The position numbers and the translations under genes are program-made. This document shows positions 5,390 through 32,962 of a DNA stretch of 64,000 nucleotides, in pieces. Positions within the stretch are counted from its first letter, which is position 1, and every line of letters begins with the position of its first letter. Source of the DNA: Escherichia coli (lineage in GTDB: Bacteria > Pseudomonadota > Gammaproteobacteria > Enterobacterales > Enterobacteriaceae); assembly GCF_044324785.1 (NCBI RefSeq), contig NZ_CP172127.1. One strand, given 5' to 3'. The notes under the pieces are model-generated. The model was not told the origin of the DNA. It searched no databases and saw nothing but the letters and a program-made list of their open reading frames with translations.

Positions 5390-6816
5390 TCATGCCAGTG
5401 GACTCATTACCCTCTGCCTGAGTAGTTCAAATCCTGCTCGACCATACATCTGGCGTTTCAGCATCTTCAGGCGATTTACATGACCTTCGACAACACCATT
5501 ACTCCAGTGACTACTGATTGCCTCACATATAGCTGCAGCATCAGCTTCCATCCCCGCCGCCACGCGCCGAAATTCTGCTGAACCGCTTTCGTGGACTCGA
5601 GTGAACCAACTGCTTAGCTGTGATTTATTTTGGGTTTTCAGAATACGGTAGAACTCGAGTGCCAGTTGCTGCGCTATTTTCAGCTCAGGTTCTTTTTCAC
5701 ACATCAGACTAATAAATCGGGAAGCATAATTTTCTTCATCCCTGGTTATTCTCCAGGGCATCAACCAGCGGCTTACCCGGGACACTGAAGGAAGTCTGAC
5801 GGCAGTAGTAACCGGTGGGTTCCAGCCTTTACGCCATTTGGCAACCGCATCCCTGACGATGGTTTCACTGCCTGTAAATCCCCGGGCCACCATTTCCCGC
5901 CATATCCGGCTGGCGTTATAATTACCACTTTCTCGTTGCTCTTTTAACCACTCCCTCCATGGGTCCAGAAGCCCTCGCTTTGGCGGTCGGGTTGACATTT
6001 CAGGGAATGTTCCTGAACGCACCCAGCGACTGACTGTCACACGCGACAGGCCTGTAATACGGGATATTTCCCTGAAACTACATCCCTTGTTATGCAGGGC
6101 CATAACCTCTGTCCAACGCTGATGCCGTTTTTTGCGGGTTTGTTGTTTTAGGCGTTCCGGACGACGGAGCGATGCTGCAGGCACAGATGGTTCTGGATCA
6201 GGTGATTTCTTTGGTGACAACTCACTGGCAACAAGACGTATCAGAGGTATATGTCTATACATCATTCGTTCAGGCGCATCGCCAATATTTTTTAGCAGAT
6301 GCCATCGATCGGCCACCTGTCTGGCCTGAGGTGCACCTTCACGTGCTGCTGTCGCATAGACTCCACTGCGATCACGCGAGACAATCTGTATTTCCGGATA
6401 TTTTCTGAACCAGGTCGCCAGCGTACGCTGATCACGGCCGGGAAGCAGGACGAGGGGACGGTGAGTATCAAGATTGACGATTAACGTACCGTAACGGTGG
6501 CCCCGATGCCACGCCCACTCATCAATACCGACATGAGGCGAGCCTGACTGTTTCGTCTCCGGGGTATTGATAACCCTGCGAAGGAGAGTATCAGCACTGC
6601 AACGGAGACCCACTGCCGTTGCTGCCCGTTTCCCGGCCTCACCTCCGGCGATTAATCCCAGTTGACGTTGTAAATTTTGTAACGCCTGTGAAGACTGTTG
6701 GTGTGAACCGGCGAAGGGAGCAAGCGACTCGGCAAAAATTTTACGTGAACAAGCCGGGTTACGGCAGTACCAGTGGCGGACAGAAAATACAAGCCATAGC
6801 GTATGTCCTGAGCAGG
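5390..6816 (-). pseudogene. ISL3-family transposase, N-terminus interrupted by IS2
   Basis: C-terminal SNGVVEGHVNRLKMLKRQMYGRAGFELLRQRV signature; RHWYCRNPAC zinc knuckle and VGIDEWAWHRGHRYGTLIV DDE region; first 13 codons of track ORF 5390-6853 are encoded by the IS2 right end. Confidence 0.6.
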
Positions 6817-6827
6817 TGGATTTGCCC

Positions 6828-7733
6828 CTATATTTCCAGACACCTGTTATCACTTAACCCATTACTGGCCTGCTGCCGCAGATATTCCCGTGGCGAGCGA
6901 TAACCCAGTGCACTATGCGGATGCCATTCGTTATAATGCTCGAACGCCTCTGCAAGGTTCTTTGCTGCCGTTAACCCGTCTGGTTTAGGCATGATACTGA
7001 TGTAGTCACGCTTTATCGTTTTCACGAAGCTCTCTGCTATGCCGTTACTCTCCGGACTCCGCACCGCCGTGTTCTTCGGTTCAAGCCCCAACATCCGGGC
7101 AAACTGCCGTGTTTCATTAGCCCGGTAGCATGAACCATTATCCGTCAGCCACTCTACTGGAGACGCCGGAAGCTCGTTGCCGAAGCGGCGTTCCACCGCT
7201 CCTGGCATGACGTCCTGTACTGTTTCACTGTCGAAGCCGCCCGTAGTGACTGCCCAGTGCAGTGCCTCACGGTCACAGCAGTCCAGCGCGAACGTGACTC
7301 GCAGTTTTTCTCCGTTATCACAGCGGAACTCGAACCCGTCAGAGCACCATCGTTGATTGCTTTCTTTCACGGCCACTTTGCCAGTATGTGCCCGTTTCGA
7401 TGGCGGTACAGCGGTTTTTCGCTCAAGCAACAGCGCATTCTGGCGCATGATCCGGTAAACACGTTTGGCATTGATCGCAGGCATACCATCAAGTTCGGCC
7501 TGTCTGCGAAGCAGCGCCCATACCCGACGATAACCATACGTGGGCAGCTCTCCGATAACATGGTGTATACGGAGAAGCACATCCGTATCATCTGAGTGAC
7601 GGCTGCGGCGACCATCTTTCCAGTCATCGGTTCGTCTGAGAATTACGTGCAACTGCGCACGCGACACCCGGAGACAACGGCTGACTAAGCTTACTCCCCA
7701 TCCCCGGGCAATAAGGGCGCGTGCGCTATCCAC
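6828..7733 (-). CDS. insD: IS2 transposase OrfB (InsD)
   Basis: 301-aa ORF with rve-type DDE integrase core; recognised as IS2 InsD from memory. Confidence 0.9.
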
Positions 7734-10868: not shown

Positions 10869-12131
10869 CTATTTTAATGGATTGTTAATCTTTGCATATT
10901 CAAACGGGCTGATACATTGTTCTCTGTTCGCACCCAGAAAATCTGCCCACCACTGTAGCATCAGTCGACGTTCTTCCAGATGTTCTGCTTTATGGATATA
11001 TGCAGCACGTACACCATTACGCTCCTGATGGCTCATCTGACGTTCCACAGCATCGCGGGACCACAAACCTGATTCAATCAATGCACTGCACGCCATCGCC
11101 CGGAATCCATGACCACAGACTTCCTGGGTTGTGTCATATCCCATCACCCTCAGGGCTTTATTTACAGTATTTTCACTGATCGGTTTACGCGGGTCATGTG
11201 CTCCCGTAAAGATCAGACCATTTTCACCAGCCCATGTCTGTAGTTCTGTCAGTATGGCTACAGCCTGTTTGCTGAGTGGCACAAGATGTGGTGTTCGCAT
11301 CTTGGAGCCCCGGTGTGAGTATTTTACGCCTGGCAGAGGTTCGCGTTCGGCTGGAATAGTCCACATGGCATTGTCAATATCAATTTCAGACCAGCGGGAA
11401 TATCTGAGTTCACTGGAACGAATAAAAACCAGTAAATTCAGCATAACTGCCAGTCGGGTGACAGGCTGACCTTTATAACCGTCAATACGCGACAGAAGTT
11501 CAGGCAGGCGTGAAAGATCCAGAGCAGGGCGATGCTGGCGTTTTACCGTGGTCAATGCACCAGCCATATCCAGAGCCGGGTTATATCTGATGATGCCAGA
11601 CTGTACGGCATAACGCATTACAGCAGATATTCTTTGCTGCAGACGACTGGCGATTTCATAAATTTGTTTTGCTTCTGCAGCACGAACAGGGATAAGCAGG
11701 TCCGGGGTATTGAGTGTTGTGATATCCCGGTTGCCGATAAAGGGGAAAACGTGTGTCTCGAGGCTTTTGATTACTTTATCGCTGTGTGATTGTGCCCATT
11801 GTTTATTACTGGCATGCCAGCGTCGTGCAATATGTTCAAAAGAGAGTTGTAAATCAGGGACTACTTTTTTAGCTCTTTTTTGTTCGCAAGGGTCAATCCC
11901 CTCTGAAATCAGTTTTCGGGCCTCATCCCGTTTTGTACGAGCTTCGGAGAGAGAAACTTCTGGATATACACCAAGTGCCAGAGTCTTCTCCTTACCCAGA
12001 ATACGATAACGGAGACGCCAGTAACGGGAACCATTAGGATGAACCAGCAGGAACATGCCAGCCCCGTCAGTGAGTTTATAAGCCTTGTCAGTGTGCTTTG
12101 CAGCCCGGATTTTTGCGTCAGTCAGTGCCAT
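10869..12131 (-). CDS. P4-type tyrosine integrase (CP4-like island integrase)
   Basis: 420-aa ORF; N-terminal LTDAKIRAAK..GMFLLVHPNGSRYWRLRYR arm-binding domain and C-terminal catalytic region (HGFRAM...RAAY). Confidence 0.9.
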   Translation of the reverse strand: MALTDAKIRAAKHTDKAYKLTDGAGMFLLVHPNGSRYWRLRYRILGKEKTLALGVYPEVSLSEARTKRDEARKLISEGIDPCEQKRAKKVVPDLQLSFEHIARRWHASNKQWAQSHSDKVIKSLETHVFPFIGNRDITTLNTPDLLIPVRAAEAKQIYEIASRLQQRISAVMRYAVQSGIIRYNPALDMAGALTTVKRQHRPALDLSRLPELLSRIDGYKGQPVTRLAVMLNLLVFIRSSELRYSRWSEIDIDNAMWTIPAEREPLPGVKYSHRGSKMRTPHLVPLSKQAVAILTELQTWAGENGLIFTGAHDPRKPISENTVNKALRVMGYDTTQEVCGHGFRAMACSALIESGLWSRDAVERQMSHQERNGVRAAYIHKAEHLEERRLMLQWWADFLGANREQCISPFEYAKINNPLK

Positions 12132-25668: not shown

Positions 25669-26400
25669 ATGAATCAACCAATACACAATGATTACTGGTT
25701 ATCCCGTTTTGAAAGTATTCTCAACAGTGCCCTGGTGCAACACCGTGCCGTCTCGTTAATCCGGGTGGATTTACGTTTCCCTGAGCATATGCCTGTCACC
25801 ATCATGGATCCCGATCCGGATTCAGCGGTGATTTCTCGTTTTTTCGAATCCCTGAAAGCCAAAATTCAGGCTTACCAGCGGAAAAAACGACGTACCAACA
25901 AGCGTGTGCGTGCAACCACCCTGCATTATTTCTGGTGTCGGGAGTTTGGCAAGGAAAAAGGCAGGAAACATTATCACGTGATATTACTGCTCAACAAAGA
26001 TACCTGGTGCTCGCCAGGGGATTTCACCGTTCCTTCTTCGCTGGCGACGCTGATCCAACTGGCATGGTGTAGCGCTCTGCATCTTGAGCCCTGGCAGGGT
26101 AATGGACTGGTTCATTTTTCCAGGCGGACGCCTTTCCGTAAACCGGCATCATCTGATGCTCGCCCTTCTTCCGATGATACGCCTTTGTCGGGTGGATGTT
26201 CTGAAACCAGGAAGGCTTCAGACAAAAAGCCGGGTGAAGCCGCTGTTCTCTGGATCAAGCGTGGTGATGTGGAAGCGATGCAGAAAGCCATGGAGAGAGC
26301 CCGTTATCTCGTGAAGTATGAGACGAAGCAGCATGACGGTTCTGGTCAACGTAATTATGGTTGCAGCCGTGGAGCGGGGCGTCTACTGGATGGCAGGTGA
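25669..26400 (+). CDS. Gp2/YagK-like family paralog (HYHV motif)
   Basis: 243-aa ORF; RKHYHVILLLNKDTWCSPGD; ACGGAGAT upstream of ATG. Confidence 0.5.
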   Translation: MNQPIHNDYWLSRFESILNSALVQHRAVSLIRVDLRFPEHMPVTIMDPDPDSAVISRFFESLKAKIQAYQRKKRRTNKRVRATTLHYFWCREFGKEKGRKHYHVILLLNKDTWCSPGDFTVPSSLATLIQLAWCSALHLEPWQGNGLVHFSRRTPFRKPASSDARPSSDDTPLSGGCSETRKASDKKPGEAAVLWIKRGDVEAMQKAMERARYLVKYETKQHDGSGQRNYGCSRGAGRLLDGR

Positions 26401-26726: not shown

Positions 26727-28331
26727 ATGAATTCCGCTTATATGCAATCCTTGCAGACATCCCACCACTTCCCAGCTGATTTAACCTACAGATTATTTCC
26801 TAGTGAGCTTGCATATCTCATTGACGACTTATATGAAAGTACCCAACTTCCGCTGGAGCTCATTTTTAATACTGTACTGGCAACGCTCTCACTCTCCTGT
26901 CAGTCACTGGTTGACGTTGTTCATCCTCACACCAACATGCCGGAACCCTGCTCACTTTATCTGTTGGCAATCGCAGAGCCAGGCGCGGGAAAAACAACGA
27001 TAAACAGACTGGTGATGAACCCCTGTTACGAATTTGCCGATCGACTCATTCAACAATACGAAGAGAGAAACAAAGATTATAAGACTGAACTACAGATCTG
27101 GAATACCCGGCAGAAAGCGCTTGCTGCCAATTTAAGAAAGGCTGTTAACCGGGGGTATCCGGGGGAACAGGAAGAAGAGGCGCTGCGTAATCACGAAAGA
27201 AATAAACCGACACGTCCGGTTCGACCGAATTTTATCTATGAAGATGTTTCGCTTAAAGCGCTTGTGGAAGGGCTCAATGAACATCCTGAGGCAGGGGTTA
27301 TTTCTGACGAGGCGGTCACTTTTTTCAGAAGCTATCTGAAAAATTATCCGGGCCTGTTGAATAAAGCATGGAGTGGACAACCGTTTGATTTTGGACGGGC
27401 TGACGAGAAATACCATATCACGCCACGTCTGACATTTTCGTTAATGTCCCAGCCGGATGTCTTTACGAATTATATAAATAAAAATGACGTACTGGCGTGG
27501 GGAAGCGGATTTCTTTCCCGGTTTCTGTTCAGTCAGACCGGAAGTCCTTCCCGGGTACGGGATTATACGAGAGGCGAGTTCAGAACAAAACCAACCCTGG
27601 AGAAGTTTCATAAAAAGATTAACGGATTTCTGTTAAGCCATAACATTAATTCCCCCGGTATGAGCACCGAAAGGAAAACATTAAAACTTGCAAAGAAAGC
27701 GTTGGGGGAGTGGCAGGAAAACCAGATTAAGATTGAAAGAAAAGCGCTTGCAGGAGGGGAGTGGGAACACATCAGAGATATTGTTCTGAAAGCAGGTTCT
27801 AATATACTGAGGATAGCTGGAATATTCACCTGCTATTGCTATAAAGATGCTGAGGAAATTGAATCAATTGCGCTTTTTAAAGCTATGCATCTCATGGACT
27901 GGTATCTGGAGGAGGCGAGCACAATATTTTATCCCATGTCTGCACGATGCCAGTTTGAACAGGATGCCTGTGAACTGTATGCATGGATTATGACCCGAAT
28001 AAGGCAGAATAATTGGCGTGCTATCAGGAAAACAGACATTGAAAGATATGGTCCCAATCGTCTGAGAAGAGCAGAAAAACTTACACCTGTACTCAATCAG
28101 TTAATCGCTCAAAATTATTTCCGTATCATCAAGATGCGATCGCATCAGGCACTTTATGTTTCTGCTCTTGATAATAATGGTTACATCCTTCCTTTCGGCG
28201 CAATGTCTTACGAACCGTTTGATATTGTTCCACCCCAGTATAACCATAATGCGAAAACATATTCCGTTGTTATTCCACCGGCATTAATTCAGTCATTTAC
28301 ACCTGATTCCTCAGCTTACACCTTATTTTAA
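26727..28331 (+). CDS. YfjI-like P-loop protein (DUF3987-like), putative NTPase
   Basis: 534-aa ORF; Walker A AEPGAGKTT; strong SD GAAGGAGG. Confidence 0.6.
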   Translation: MNSAYMQSLQTSHHFPADLTYRLFPSELAYLIDDLYESTQLPLELIFNTVLATLSLSCQSLVDVVHPHTNMPEPCSLYLLAIAEPGAGKTTINRLVMNPCYEFADRLIQQYEERNKDYKTELQIWNTRQKALAANLRKAVNRGYPGEQEEEALRNHERNKPTRPVRPNFIYEDVSLKALVEGLNEHPEAGVISDEAVTFFRSYLKNYPGLLNKAWSGQPFDFGRADEKYHITPRLTFSLMSQPDVFTNYINKNDVLAWGSGFLSRFLFSQTGSPSRVRDYTRGEFRTKPTLEKFHKKINGFLLSHNINSPGMSTERKTLKLAKKALGEWQENQIKIERKALAGGEWEHIRDIVLKAGSNILRIAGIFTCYCYKDAEEIESIALFKAMHLMDWYLEEASTIFYPMSARCQFEQDACELYAWIMTRIRQNNWRAIRKTDIERYGPNRLRRAEKLTPVLNQLIAQNYFRIIKMRSHQALYVSALDNNGYILPFGAMSYEPFDIVPPQYNHNAKTYSVVIPPALIQSFTPDSSAYTLF

Positions 28332-28930
28332 AACAATTTTGTGAGTAGAAAACGAAAATCATAATCCTTCGAATGAAGGTTGATGATAAGGTGTGTTGCA
28401 TATCCTGCACCTGTGCAAATATTCACCAATTATTGGGTGTGAATGAAAATTTCTCTGAAAAAATCGCTATGGTAGCAACAGTAGCAGCACATACACTACA
28501 TCTGTGATTTGGTTTTGTTTTCATAATGACCTGCTGTCAGAGCTGATTGAATGCTGGGATGTGCGCACTGGTGGAAGAGTGGTTTTCGTTTCAGATATAA
28601 CGAAAGGCAATCGAAAGATTGTTTTAAACATGGATTAAAGCTAATCATTAACCATATTGTGTGAGTTTTTATATATAAGTTTGTTTGATTCTTGCCGTGA
28701 TGAGTGCTGGGGTATATGACGATGTCGCTCTCTTTCTGAATAACAAATTATTATTCGTCTGTTACTGATAAGGGATGCGATTCATGTTTTAATAGATGGT
28801 TGAAGAAAATTAATTTGATATTTTTTTTGTAAGGGAATGGAACTGTCCGGAATATGTTCAGAACGGCGGATTTCTCATTTCCATTCATTAAACATGGATA
28901 ATTTTAATTTAGGTTTATTACTATTATTAT

Positions 28931-29047
28931 ACTCACTCCCTTTTTGATATAATCTCTATTGTTATTTACTTCCTGTCTTTACTCACTCCCTTTTTCATAC
29001 AATCTCTATTGTTATTTACTTCCTGTCTTTACTCACTCTCTATCTTT
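28931..29047. repeat. Tandem 50-bp direct repeat: two copies plus a partial third
   Basis: 28931-28980 and 28981-29030 differ at 2 positions; partial third copy ACTCACTCTCTATCTTT. Confidence 0.7.
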
Positions 29048-29920
29048 ACGATTATATTCACTCTATCGTTACACATTCCATTAGTATTACTCTTGTTATC
29101 GTATTCATTCCATCCCTCAATCATATTTACTGTAACTCATATGATGTTCAGGTAAGTTATTCTCTACCATTCTACTGATGATATTCATCTGTTCTCATTT
29201 TCACTGAAACAGCAATTAATTTTAATCTTATCCATCATGAGCTGTATTTTCTTAACAATGGTTGTTTATCTGAAGTGTTTTAACTATTCTGATGAACATC
29301 AATTCTTTTGTCATTACTGATTAACCGAATGTTTACTTTTTGATAAGGTATCCATGATTCTGTAACGATTAACAGAGCTGGATAAACAATGGAATTGACA
29401 GGAGAGATTCCTGATTATGTTTGTTCTGGGTTGTATTATCTAAGATGCAGGATGAAAATCATGTCAGTGGTATTTTTTATTCTGCTATCGTGAGCCGTGA
29501 ATGTTCATGTCCTTAAGAACAGATTGAATGAGCGCATATAAGTTTATTGCATTGGCCTTGTACACAGTTTTTACAACCACTGAGAGCAAGTTTGTAGTTT
29601 ATGATGTGATTGGTCGCAATATGTTTCTTAACCTTCTGGACGTGGTGTTTTATCGCGTATTTACAGTATTTCGTGATGTTTTATTGAGTCTGTATTTTCT
29701 TTACTCCTCGTTTATCTCATCTCTTTAGCTAATACCATCAGATAATCCATTTCTTTCTGCATAATGCTGCGTATCGTTAATAACCCGTCGTATCCATTCT
29801 GCTACAGCATGCCTGATAAATACCATCTGTAAGTTATTACCGTTTTAGATCTGATTATGAGCGAAAGCATTAATTCGTTCACAGAGCTTAAAACATCATT
29901 AACTTTCAGGAGTCATCAAC

Positions 29921-30487
29921 ATGCCTAAATCTTACACACCAAACTGGTTTTTTACCGCTTTACTTGACAATCACATCAATCAAATGATGGCACGCTATTC
30001 CTGCCTGCGGGCCTTACGGATGGATTTCTTCTACAGGAAAGATACGCCTGATTTCTTACAACCTGATCATCGCTGGCTTGAATTGCAGTTGCGTATGCTG
30101 CTGGAGCAGGTGGAACAATTTGAAAATATCGTTGGTTTCTTCTGGGTGATTGAATGGACGGCTGATCATGGTTTTCATGCGCATGTGGTTTTCTGGATCG
30201 ATCGTCAGAGGGTTAAAAAAATATATCCCTTTGCGGAGCGGATAGCGGAATGCTGGCGGTCTATTACGCATAACAGCGGTTCGGCACACCGCTGTACATA
30301 TCAGCCGCATTATACATACAACATCAACATTCCTGTGCGCCACAACGATCCTGAAAGCATCGATAATATTCGCGGTGCCCTGCATTATCTGGCAAAAGAA
30401 GAGCAAAAAGACGGGCTGTGTGCCTACGGCTGCAATGAAGTTCCTGAACGTCCTGCTGCAGGGCGTCCTCGTAAGCCTCACTTCTGA
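29921..30487 (+). CDS. YagK/YfjJ-family protein (inovirus Gp2-like)
   Basis: 188-aa ORF; HGFHAHVVFWIDRQ H-x-H motif; paralog of ORF at 798. Confidence 0.65.
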   Translation: MPKSYTPNWFFTALLDNHINQMMARYSCLRALRMDFFYRKDTPDFLQPDHRWLELQLRMLLEQVEQFENIVGFFWVIEWTADHGFHAHVVFWIDRQRVKKIYPFAERIAECWRSITHNSGSAHRCTYQPHYTYNINIPVRHNDPESIDNIRGALHYLAKEEQKDGLCAYGCNEVPERPAAGRPRKPHF

Positions 30488-30744
30488 AGCTTAAATCCTG
30501 AGCTTCCTGTCCTGGAAACACTCCGTCGGTAAAAACTTACCGCCTTGCTTAATGATGTGAACTGAAGTCAACGGAGATCATTCACTCTGAACCACATCCG
30601 GTGTTCTGTCCCTTGTCGGTGACCTGATCTTCCCGTTCTGCCCCGGTTCTTCACTTATTCCATCAACCCCATCCGCAAACCATAACACGTCAGCTTATTC
30701 ACGGGCAGGACGCATTGTGGGCTGCGCATAACGGAGCATATCTT

Positions 30745-31305
30745 ATGAATGCTATCCCTTATTTCGACTATAGCCTGGCCCCCTTCTGGCCATCTTATCA
30801 GAACAAAGTCATCGGCGTCCTTGAGCGTGCGCTGCGTGAGCAGTCCGGCTCACGGATACGGCGGATCCTGCTTCGTCTGCCGTGTGAATATGACAATACC
30901 TTCAACAGCAGAACGACCTGGTTTGGTATGGATTTTATCGAAACCGTCAGTGCGCTGATGAATGCAACACCCGGACGTGACCTTTGCTGGCTCCTGACCC
31001 GTCATCCTGAAAAACCGGAATACCATGTGGTGCTGTGCGTCAGACAGGAGTATTTCGACGGCCCCGAACTGGATCGGTTGATTCTGGATGCCTGGAGTAA
31101 CGTGCTGGGTTTCGCGTCACCAGGTGAAGCAAAGCCGTACCAGAAGCAGATCACCCGGGATGTGGTACTGGATCGCCGGTCACCGGACTGCGAAGCCCTG
31201 TTTAAGGACCTTATCTGGGCGTTCAGTGATTTCGCCCGCGATCGCCGTGGAGTGCGCGATCCGGAAGCCCGTTGCCTCGCCGGTAATCCCGGTTGGCAGT
31301 GCTGA
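30745..31305 (+). CDS. Gp2/YagK-like family paralog
   Basis: Track ORF 30715-31305; PEYHVVLCVRQEYFDGPEL aligns to the H-x-H region of the 25669 paralog; start Met uncertain. Confidence 0.45.
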   Translation: MNAIPYFDYSLAPFWPSYQNKVIGVLERALREQSGSRIRRILLRLPCEYDNTFNSRTTWFGMDFIETVSALMNATPGRDLCWLLTRHPEKPEYHVVLCVRQEYFDGPELDRLILDAWSNVLGFASPGEAKPYQKQITRDVVLDRRSPDCEALFKDLIWAFSDFARDRRGVRDPEARCLAGNPGWQC

Positions 31306-31373: not shown

Positions 31374-31607
31374 ATGTTGACCACAATAAGCCACGACAGC
31401 GTGTTGCTGCGTGCCGACGATCCCCTGATCGACATGAACTACATCACCAGTTTCACCGGCATGACCGATAAATGGTTTTACAGGCTGATCAGTGAAGGTC
31501 ATTTCCCTAAACCCATCAAACTGGGGCGCAGCAGCCGCTGGTACAAAAGTGAAGTGGAGCAGTGGATGCAGCAGCGAATTGAGGAATCACGAGGAGCAGC
31601 AGCATGA
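31374..31607 (+). CDS. alpA: AlpA-family transcriptional regulator / excisionase-like HTH protein
   Basis: Internal start of track ORF 31293-31607; MTDKWFYRLISEGHFPKPIKLGRSSRWYKSEVEQWMQQR matches the AlpA pattern. Confidence 0.7.
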   Translation: MLTTISHDSVLLRADDPLIDMNYITSFTGMTDKWFYRLISEGHFPKPIKLGRSSRWYKSEVEQWMQQRIEESRGAAA

Positions 31608-31696
31608 AACGTGTTGTAATGCCAGTACGCTGGCAATGTGCGAAATGCCGGCGCTGGTATTGTGGAAATCAGCCCTGTCCCTGGTGCTGGCGCTGA
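31604..31696 (+). CDS. Unannotated 30-aa Cys-rich putative zinc-ribbon peptide
   Basis: MKRVVMPVRWQCAKCRRWYCGNQPCPWCWR; ATG overlaps the alpA stop (ATGA); below the 60-aa ORF-track cutoff. Confidence 0.35.
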   Translation: MKRVVMPVRWQCAKCRRWYCGNQPCPWCWR

Positions 31697-31836
31697 CAAC
31701 TCCCGCTCATCTTTCTGCTGGCACCCTCTGGCCAGCCAACTGTTTGTCATCATTTCCTGACTGATTCGTCATTCCCTTCGTCCCGCCAGTCACTGGTGTT
31801 TGTATCGTACCGTGCCGGTGTCGATGTGCGCTTTCC

Positions 31837-32433
31837 GTGTGTCTGGTCTGCACCGGCTTAACAAAATTCAACGGGGATAAAATAGTGCAAATAACCGAAG
31901 CCTTACTTTCAGCGCCGGGGGAAATCCGGCGTTTTGTTCAGCAGGCGGTGGACCACTGGCCAAATCTGTTGGCATTTCACTTCACGCTCCATTCGGCAGA
32001 AGGAAACATCAACGGACAACAGATTCATGCATTCTGTACTTCCTTTTACCGACAGGTGCACGAGCGTATTACTGAACGTAATCACACGGCCAGTCCAGCA
32101 CCACCGGTGGTATTACGCTGGTTGCGGGAACAACATGGAGGAGCAACAATGCGATGCCTGTTGCTGCTCAGCCAGACGAGCATTTGCCATCCACGGGTCA
32201 GTGCCACGGTTGATGAAGAATGTTCGCAACGGGTGGATTTATTGCAACAGACATGGCGGGTGATAAGTGCTGACGGACAATGCCGGGTGGAAAGGTGTTT
32301 TCAGGCTGCCCGGGGTGATACATCCGGCCAGTATATTGCGTTAAAAACAGTTGCATTGTCTCTGGGGTTACCGGTTGTGACCGGTATTACCCATCGCCCG
32401 GTACAGCGCTGTACATTGATTACAGCTCAGTGA
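31837..32433 (+). CDS. Hypothetical protein, possibly a further divergent Gp2/YagK-like paralog
   Basis: 198-aa ORF; LLAFHFTLHS and MRCLLLLSQ segments loosely align with other paralogs; start may be GTG at 31885. Confidence 0.35.
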   Translation: MCLVCTGLTKFNGDKIVQITEALLSAPGEIRRFVQQAVDHWPNLLAFHFTLHSAEGNINGQQIHAFCTSFYRQVHERITERNHTASPAPPVVLRWLREQHGGATMRCLLLLSQTSICHPRVSATVDEECSQRVDLLQQTWRVISADGQCRVERCFQAARGDTSGQYIALKTVALSLGLPVVTGITHRPVQRCTLITAQ

Positions 32434-32450: not shown

Positions 32451-32753
32451 TCAACGAGGTTTTCTGTCTTTTCGTCGGTCATTCAGCATCATTAAACGGG
32501 TCTCTGCCTCTTTCTGTTCCTGTGGTGTCACTTCCCCGCACGGCTGACCGTTCAGGTTGTAACGGGCGCCACCTGCTATTAACGCACGGTAATAGCGCGG
32601 AGACTGCACATAAGACGCCACTGCTGCATGTAATGTACCAGCGCCAAACGCCAGTTCTCGGATGGCGATATCCTGTATCAGGTCGTCAGGTATCCCCACT
32701 TTAAGTGGTTTTGTTTTTTTCCCGGTTGAATGACTCAGGCCAGAGTTCCACAA
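32451..32753 (-). CDS. Hypothetical protein
   Basis: 100-aa ORF; no family recognised; may be one frame-disrupted gene with 32768-32962. Confidence 0.3.
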   Translation of the reverse strand: MWNSGLSHSTGKKTKPLKVGIPDDLIQDIAIRELAFGAGTLHAAVASYVQSPRYYRALIAGGARYNLNGQPCGEVTPQEQKEAETRLMMLNDRRKDRKPR

Positions 32754-32767
32754 GACGAATAATGCGC

Positions 32768-32962
32768 TTACGGTTTTTGCTCTGGCGTTTTGTCATGTCG
32801 CCACGGTGTTTTATCAGCAGGTTTCTGTTTATCGTTCAACTGTGGTATCTGGTCACCGGCCTTCATTTTGTATGCTGTGTCCGTTTTATTCTGCAGCGGC
32901 GTTGCCGGTGATTTACTGAAAATACCCTGCGGTTTACGGTTAATGGTCAGAGTTACCATCAA
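32768..32962 (-). CDS. Hypothetical small protein
   Basis: 64-aa ORF directly upstream of 32451-32753 on the same strand. Confidence 0.25.
   Translation of the reverse strand: MMVTLTINRKPQGIFSKSPATPLQNKTDTAYKMKAGDQIPQLNDKQKPADKTPWRHDKTPEQKP

Follow-up and report, generated by a model that had tools for sequence, protein, structure and literature searches.

The AlpA protein of the Escherichia coli element CP4-57 activates intA and excision, and the AlpA of Pseudomonas aeruginosa is a processive antiterminator; we know of no small zinc-ribbon partner described for either. Small zinc proteins are known from elements of the P2/P4 type, where Ogr and Delta (about 70 aa, with four Cys) activate late genes and control element transcription; the Ogr/Delta genes are not known to be located after an AlpA gene. 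Here we describe a 64,000-nt stretch of an E. coli genome (contig NZ_CP172127.1 of RefSeq assembly GCF_044324785.1), called the window below, in which a Cys-rich open reading frame (ORF) of 30 codons starts where an alpA-like gene stops. We conclude that this ORF, at 31604-31696 on the plus strand, is probably a genuine gene for a small predicted zinc ribbon of an AlpA cassette; it would be transcribed with alpA and may act in the regulatory step of AlpA.

The locus resembles the described AlpA systems in the neighbor gene, which is of the Phage_AlpA / excisionase-type winged helix-turn-helix (HTH) kind, and in a P4-type integrase 19 kb away in the window. It differs from K-12 CP4-57 in what follows the regulator: there alpA is followed by yfjI, and a profile search finds no homolog of the small ORF in K-12 CP4-57, so that the small-protein and ribosome profiling (Ribo-seq) literature on K-12 is not applicable. 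Phage P2 and its satellite P4 offer, in Ogr/Delta, no more than an analogy of function; the Cys spacing of Ogr is C-x2-C-x22-C-x4-C, as against C-x2-C-x9-C-x2-C in the small ORF, and none of 16 members of the small-ORF family has a Pfam match to Ogr_Delta (PF04606). With the general bacterial pattern of ATGA/TGATG-coupled small proteins the window shares the four-base overlap and a Shine-Dalgarno motif within the upstream gene, but unlike in that pattern coupling is not universal in this family, where gaps of 6 to 115 nt occur. The features of the regulator and the small ORF, with what each call draws on (including names given by the Prokaryotic Genome Annotation Pipeline, PGAP), are these:

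31374..31607, plus strand: alpA-like gene, 77 aa, Phage_AlpA / excisionase-type winged HTH (TIGR01764, PHROG, PGAP names)
31591..31596, plus strand: Shine-Dalgarno-like GAGGAG, 7 nt before the ATG, within the 3' end of alpA (window sequence, relatives)
31604..31607, plus strand: ATGA overlap of the small-ORF start with the alpA stop (window sequence)
31604..31696, plus strand: small ORF, probable basic zinc-ribbon protein, C-terminally short allele (ORF, conservation, frame-specific selection)
31622..31693, plus strand: predicted zinc-ribbon core, 24 codons, P7-R30 (alignments A2/A4, HHalign, AlphaFold strands)
31637-31639 (C12), 31646-31648 (C15), 31676-31678 (C25) and 31685-31687 (C28), plus strand: putative Zn ligands (conserved Cys)
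31661-31663, plus strand: codon of C20, semi-conserved only (alignments A2/A4)

The alpA-like protein matches TIGR01764 ('excise', E 3e-4) and the PHROG annotation 'excisionase and transcriptional regulator' (E 5e-10), and PGAP names it 'helix-turn-helix / AlpA family transcriptional regulator'. Its TGA stop lies at 31605-31607; the small ORF runs from an ATG at 31604-31606 to a TGA at 31694-31696, and its 30-aa product is MKRVVMPVRWQCAKCRRWYCGNQPCPWCWR. An earlier note on this DNA had pointed out a small Cys-rich ORF whose ATG overlaps the alpA stop as ATGA, and the window sequence bears this out; the five Cys that it counted are there (positions 12, 15, 20, 25 and 28), whereas its three Trp are in fact four (W10, W18, W27, W29). 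The peptide is strongly basic, with 7 Lys and Arg and no Asp or Glu. A double CxxC (CxxC-x5-20-CxxC) is unique to it among the 605 window ORFs of 25-60 aa; block shuffles of the window yield a mean of 0.3 such ORFs per window and a maximum of 3. By composition, then, the small ORF is unremarkable, and the case that it is not a product of chance comes from comparison with relatives.

For this comparison the AlpA protein served as the query and one genome per species was scanned, and the 44 loci returned (here given L numbers) are thus a sample not chosen for the small ORF. The same Cys-rich frame stands just downstream in 13 of the 15 closest AlpA loci (66-100% AlpA identity), the carriers including Citrobacter, Yokenella, Siccibacter, Superficieibacter, Hafnia paralvei, Kosakonia, Rosenbergiella and Tenebrionibacter. 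Six of seven further E. coli copies (83-90% DNA identity) retain the ORF at 37-51 aa, the usual length in this species; the 30-aa and 37-aa alleles are set apart by a 4-nt difference immediately before the stop. Conservation of the frame downstream of alpA homologs had been proposed in the earlier note as a check, and the frame is kept, under the frame-specific purifying selection described below; loss of the frame in close homologs, which that note had thought would speak against a gene, is seen in E. coli lineage L050, with degraded remnants in L007 and L014 (the remaining two of the 15) and no canonical start codon in L012 and L013, while most loci keep the frame.

The family consensus is P-x-R-W-x-C-x2-C-x-R-x-[YF]-C-G-x2-P-C-P-x-C. 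Residues W10, C12, C15, G21, C25, P26 and C28 are invariant in alignment A4 (17 sequences); alignment A2 (16 sequences) has W10, C12, C25 and C28 invariant, C15 in 15 of 16 and G21 in at least 90%. The fifth Cys, C20, becomes Gly or Ser in two members (L028 and L060). Distant stand-alone members, P0040 and P0057, occupy the same position. When 1.84 billion cluster representatives were searched with a profile, only 26 hits came back, among them stand-alone members of 46-61 aa and several frameshift or read-through artefacts. A phage origin was considered and rejected: tblastn gave no match among 50,697 phage records, and a single contig matched in IMG/VR.

Selection was gauged by a Nei-Gojobori count over the 24-codon core of 19 unique sequences, which gave the following ratios of nonsynonymous to synonymous change per site (pN/pS); because the cores were located by protein motif, the ratios are biased toward conservation in the Cys-rich frame, a point that tells against our reading:

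Cys-rich frame (+0): pN/pS 0.16 in the E. coli type, 0.32 in other genera, 0.36 in all; without stops
Frames +1, +2, -0 and -2: pN/pS about 1.0 to 2.5; open for the most part
Frame -1, the antisense mirror: pN/pS 0.21-0.46; stops in 4/8 and 5/11 sequences

Third codon positions also take a disproportionate share of the changes: 12 of 19 among the E. coli-type sequences (p = 0.007) and 39 of 76 among those of other genera (p = 0.0009). By these comparisons the frame at 31604-31696 is the only one with a coding signature, which argues for a real, conserved gene; the small ORF would add a clear, selection-supported case to the catalog of bacterial small proteins.

The relatives also connect the small ORF to a known protein family. 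Searched against the hidden Markov model of the Pfam family Zn_ribbon_11 (PF11682, 'Probable zinc-ribbon'), 3 of the 16 family members match at E<=1e-3, and relaxing the threshold to E<=0.1 raises the number to 10. The 52-aa Tenebrionibacter protein of L028 (WP_451923538.1, named 'putative zinc ribbon protein' by PGAP) matches at E 2.3e-7; P0057 has a precomputed PF11682 match, and P0004 also passes the Pfam model. The same elements encode proteins of about 140 aa composed of DUF7828 and a C-terminal Zn_ribbon_11 domain, one of which scores E 2.7e-17 against PF11682. HHalign of the small ORFs (A2) against the C-terminal domains of DUF7828 proteins (A3) gave a probability of 94.9%, E 4.2e-8, over 28 columns; the signature W-x-C-x2-C ... 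[YF]-x-G ... C-x2-C is present in the small ORFs, and the same columns are invariant in A3. This match identifies the small ORF, at the level of sequence profiles, as a stand-alone, divergent Zn_ribbon_11 module and hence as one further member of an existing Pfam family that is already known and uncharacterized.

The small ORF and the PF11682 domain of DUF7828 proteins share the motif W-x-C-x2-C-x3-[YF]-x-G-x3-C-x2-C, the mobile-element cassette and the taxa. The small ORF differs from that domain in standing alone at 30-55 aa rather than forming the tail of a protein of about 140 aa, in its basic N-terminal arm and in the 'PCP' of its second knuckle; the E. coli form, the window peptide included, falls short of the PF11682 model. 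AlphaFold models the window peptide as a beta-hairpin with strands at residues 9-11 and 18-20 and a predicted local distance difference test score (pLDDT) of 77. Together with the CxxC...CxxC pattern and the homology to Zn_ribbon_11 domains, this agrees with the zinc-ribbon-type peptide that had been proposed from the sequence. A Foldseek search against the PDB gave no significant match, the top weak matches being zinc-ribbon ribosomal proteins and RING domains, and a sequence search of the PDB gave nothing below E 0.2.

The linkage to alpA, likewise proposed before, is upheld in most loci, where the alpA stop and the small ORF either overlap (ATGA or TGATG) or are 6-33 nt apart; the full range of spacing is from a 4-nt overlap (-4) to +115 nt. 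The ATGA overlap is retained in L001-L004, L049, L051 and L052, despite a 3-nt deletion in the alpA of L003. In nearly all relatives GAGGAG, GGAGG, GAGG or AAGGA stands 7-9 nt upstream of the start, either inside alpA or just past its end. Finally, one metagenomic contig (L058 30-320, JGI 3300045721 contig Ga0487874_00184) encodes an in-frame AlpA::Zn-ribbon fusion of 96 aa, and the fusion gene is followed by DUF7828/Zn_ribbon_11 genes. As a separate observation, alpA-like Met21 (window 31434, '...LIDMNYITSF...') is invariant in 17 aligned AlpA sequences and is the first residue of the L058 fusion; alpA translation may in truth begin at this internal ATG at 31434, for a protein of about 57 aa instead of the annotated 77 aa.

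We picture the function of the gene as follows. The product would be a very basic protein of roughly 3.7 kDa, whose four conserved Cys (C12, C15, C25 and C28, in CxxC-x9-CPxC) most likely bind one zinc ion to form a single zinc-ribbon hairpin. The small ORF would be cotranscribed with the alpA-like regulator; on the window copy, ribosomes that terminate at the alpA stop could restart at the overlapping ATG, aided by GAGGAG. The pair belongs to a conserved cassette of the order Rep-like YagK/YfjJ - AlpA - small Zn ribbon - DUF7828/Zn_ribbon_11 - Gp2-like, carried by P4/CP4-57-type integrative islands and large conjugative plasmids of the Enterobacterales. The most likely role is that of a zinc-stabilized accessory factor that binds nucleic acid or a partner protein, as suggested by the strong positive charge, and that is made in fixed proportion to AlpA. 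It would act in the same step as AlpA, which could be excision or else the transcription or antitermination of genes on the island under AlpA control. This role together with AlpA is suggested by synteny, by coupling and by the one natural fusion, and is the weakest step of the reading; if it is true, the peptide supplies a missing component in the switching-on or excision of the island. A bolder form of the idea makes the small zinc ribbon indispensable as a partner to this AlpA clade, perhaps as an adaptor through which AlpA contacts RNA polymerase or DNA. The two would then form a two-component switch for read-through, excision or replication of the widespread Rep-like cassette of enterobacterial pathogenicity islands and NDM-type megaplasmids; this form strikes us as doubtful.

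Several observations weigh against the reading of the small ORF as a gene acting with AlpA. First, the small ORF is intact where alpA is truncated (the O157 loci L053/L054) or frameshifted (EC958, L055), which argues against strict dependence on AlpA. Second, the fusion comes from a single metagenomic contig, for which sequencing error is possible; an AlphaFold model of it from a paired alignment reached a predicted template modeling score (pTM) of only 0.43; its linker is disordered, the ribbon is modeled no more confidently than before and no defined interface is seen, although with 17 sequences, no predicted aligned error and no zinc the model is a weak test. Third, a 26-nt deletion has destroyed the frame in the HS13-1-type lineage of E. 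coli (L050); the replacements that the Cys and Trp codons downstream of it have since accumulated, on the other hand, speak for the gene, being expected once selection was lifted after the loss. Fourth, no form of the gene is shorter than the window allele, which sits inside a mosaic, partly decayed island with insertion sequence (IS) elements and a ProQ/FinO gene of which a frameshifted copy is annotated. Fifth, the window peptide alone matches no Pfam, NCBIfam, PHROG or PADLOC model, and against the PF11682 model it has no match even at E<=10. Sixth, the Cys-rich ORF is absent from the 465 novel small genes of a Ribo-seq survey of O157:H7 Sakai (Hücker et al. 2017, PMC5597208), in which alpA itself is barely expressed: Sakai alpA (ECs5414) has a translatome value of 4.7 reads per kilobase per million mapped reads (RPKM) at a coverage of 0.35, with alpA RPKM at about 5-10 in the data set, so that the operon was nearly silent there. 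Our literature search turned up neither translation data nor a direct demonstration of zinc binding for the small ORF, no paper with the peptide sequence, and nothing relevant on PF11682/DUF3279, DUF7828/YagK/YfjJ or AlpA plus a zinc ribbon.

A serious rival to the AlpA link is that the zinc ribbon has no need of AlpA and serves replication or mobilization of the element together with the DUF7828 or Rep-like (YagK/YfjJ, Gp2) proteins, or some unrelated task, so that its place beside alpA reflects a shared operon only. We regard this as possible but less likely. The small ORF is homologous to the C-terminal domain of DUF7828 proteins of the same cassette, Rep-like genes are abundant there, and both the persistence of the ORF beside broken alpA genes and the lack of an interface in the fusion model fit such independence. 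Against this, the position right after alpA is held down to about 40% peptide identity while other cassette genes vary, the start and stop overlap in several lineages, and a natural AlpA::Zn-ribbon fusion exists.

A second possibility grants the family and doubts the window copy, which would be a decaying, truncated 30-aa remnant in a degenerate mosaic island and would have no current function. The early stop, produced by the 4-nt difference from the 37-51-aa alleles, is in keeping with this, as are the state of the island (the IS elements, the ProQ/FinO frameshift and the missing DUF7828 genes) and the clear losses elsewhere, by deletion in L050 and by decay in L007 and L014. We nevertheless think decay unlikely, for the window copy keeps the four conserved Cys and the entire conserved core, and the residues that follow the final CxxC show no conservation from one genus to the next. 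Its Shine-Dalgarno motif and its alpA are intact, and 182 complete genomes carry the 93-nt allele at an identity of at least 99%.

It is very unlikely that the ORF is only a coupling or leader device, in which the passage of ribosomes sets downstream expression or RNA structure and the peptide has no function. The ATGA overlap could serve such a device, as could the conserved 188-nt spacer with a weak terminator-like hairpin ahead of the next gene; yet the four Cys, W10, G21 and P26 are conserved across genera amid heavy synonymous turnover, the peptide is homologous to a protein domain, and the spacing to alpA is not fixed but lies anywhere between -4 and +115 nt.

There remains the possibility that another overlapping frame is the real gene, to which public annotation gives some occasion. 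Of 5426 complete E. coli genomes, 1176 (about a fifth) carry the 93-nt sequence, and the annotation at the match is almost always the neighboring HTH regulator alone; the earlier description of the ORF as unannotated is thus largely correct, save that the exact 30-aa sequence occurs once in GenBank (ELI19972.1, 'hypothetical protein, partial'). PGAP almost never calls the small ORF; it sometimes calls a +2-frame ORF instead (WP_001317565.1, WP_000335228.1), in the deletion lineage a frameshift chimera (WP_000831909.1) and on a Klebsiella plasmid an antisense ORF. At this site the Sakai survey lists the antisense ORF XECs134 (PMC5597208). The alternative-frame and antisense 'hypothetical proteins' that RefSeq/PGAP places over the small ORF in some genomes are these:

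31636-31764 of the window, +2 frame
31499-31753 of the window, minus strand
3294-3422 of L002
3334-3573 of L003
4021-4200 of L062, minus strand

That such a frame (that of WP_001317565.1 and WP_000335228.1, or antisense XECs134) is the gene, or that the Cys-rich ORF is a non-coding product of chance, is the least credible of the alternatives, since the PGAP annotations, a weak Ribo-seq signal for XECs134 in Sakai (translatome RPKM 19.9, coverage 0.68; PMC5597208) and the 0.3 double-CxxC ORFs per shuffled window stand against pN/pS values of 1.06-1.14 for the PGAP frame (+2), about 1.0 for the XECs134 frame (-2) and 1.8-1.9 for frame -0, against stops that break the low-ratio frame -1 in about half of the sequences, and against ends and lengths of the alternative ORFs that shift with every indel; we consider these ORFs ruled out as the gene by pN/pS and stop codons. 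Recognition of the small ORF would correct records in which the gene is skipped or replaced by a spurious alternative-frame or antisense 'hypothetical protein'.

The surroundings of the small ORF are those of a mosaic island of the type found in extraintestinal and avian pathogenic E. coli (ExPEC/APEC), with a phosphotransferase system (PTS)/transketolase operon, IS elements and a P4-type integrase in the window, and ireA in a close relative. No tRNA gene is present in the whole window. The neighboring genes, and a fuller copy of the cassette, are as follows:

5390-7733, minus strand: ISL3- and IS2-family transposase genes beside the integrase
10869-12131, minus strand: P4/CP4-57-type integrase gene, about 19 kb upstream of alpA and on the opposite strand
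29921..30487, plus strand: YagK/YfjJ (inovirus Gp2, Rep-like) gene (PGAP names in near-identical loci)
30715..31305, plus strand: hypothetical protein, 196 aa from a TTG start, no family found
31885..32433, plus strand: 'UCP030791 family putative phage-derived protein' (Gp2-like), 188 nt past the small ORF (PGAP names, P0022 cluster names)
32451-32960, minus strand: ProQ/FinO-family gene, intact in other cassette copies (L051); the annotation of the 98.6%-identical relative L002/L056 gives it as a frameshifted pseudogene
L062 3022-6420: whole cassette (Gp2, AlpA, small Zn ribbon, two 'putative zinc ribbon proteins', Gp2-type, DUF2913) on Klebsiella pneumoniae plasmid p_dm600b_NDM1, IncFIB/IncHI1B

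In the divergent members the gene order is YagK/YfjJ (Rep_ORF2-G2P-like), Phage_AlpA, small Zn ribbon, DUF7828 with or without Zn_ribbon_11, and Gp2-like; the YagK/YfjJ family is also found upstream of alpA in L059, L060 and L062. The DUF7828 genes of the fuller cassettes are not present in the window. The cassette occurs both on chromosomal islands and on IncHI1B/IncFIB Klebsiella plasmids; in all, 16 large plasmids of Klebsiella (the majority), Raoultella, Citrobacter and E. coli carry it, NDM-1 plasmids included, and 14 of the 16 are conjugative. The small ORF marks a conserved and wholly uncharacterized cassette (Rep-like - AlpA - Zn ribbon - DUF7828) that both pathogenicity islands and conjugative plasmids carry.

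The spacer between the small ORF and the Gp2-like gene (31697-31884, 188 nt) is conserved among E. coli copies nearly like the coding parts. It contains the weak terminator-like hairpin at 31784-31798, and its fold is modestly better than that of shuffles (z = -1.8). The spacer could be a target of AlpA-type antitermination. An RNA element as the explanation was considered and rejected, with no Rfam match, no notable promoters or terminators and a spacer fold z of only -1.8.

The window carries paralogous Rep-like 'inovirus Gp2 / YagK-YfjJ / UCP030791' genes within 7 kb, at 25669-26400, 29921-30487, 31885-32433 and possibly 30715-31305, and a helicase/primase-like gene (26727-28331) adjoins this set. 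Just upstream of the YagK/YfjJ gene lies a stretch of 30-34% GC (about 28400-29800), within which a tandem repeat occupies 28930-29038 (50 bp, 2.2 copies, 96% matches).

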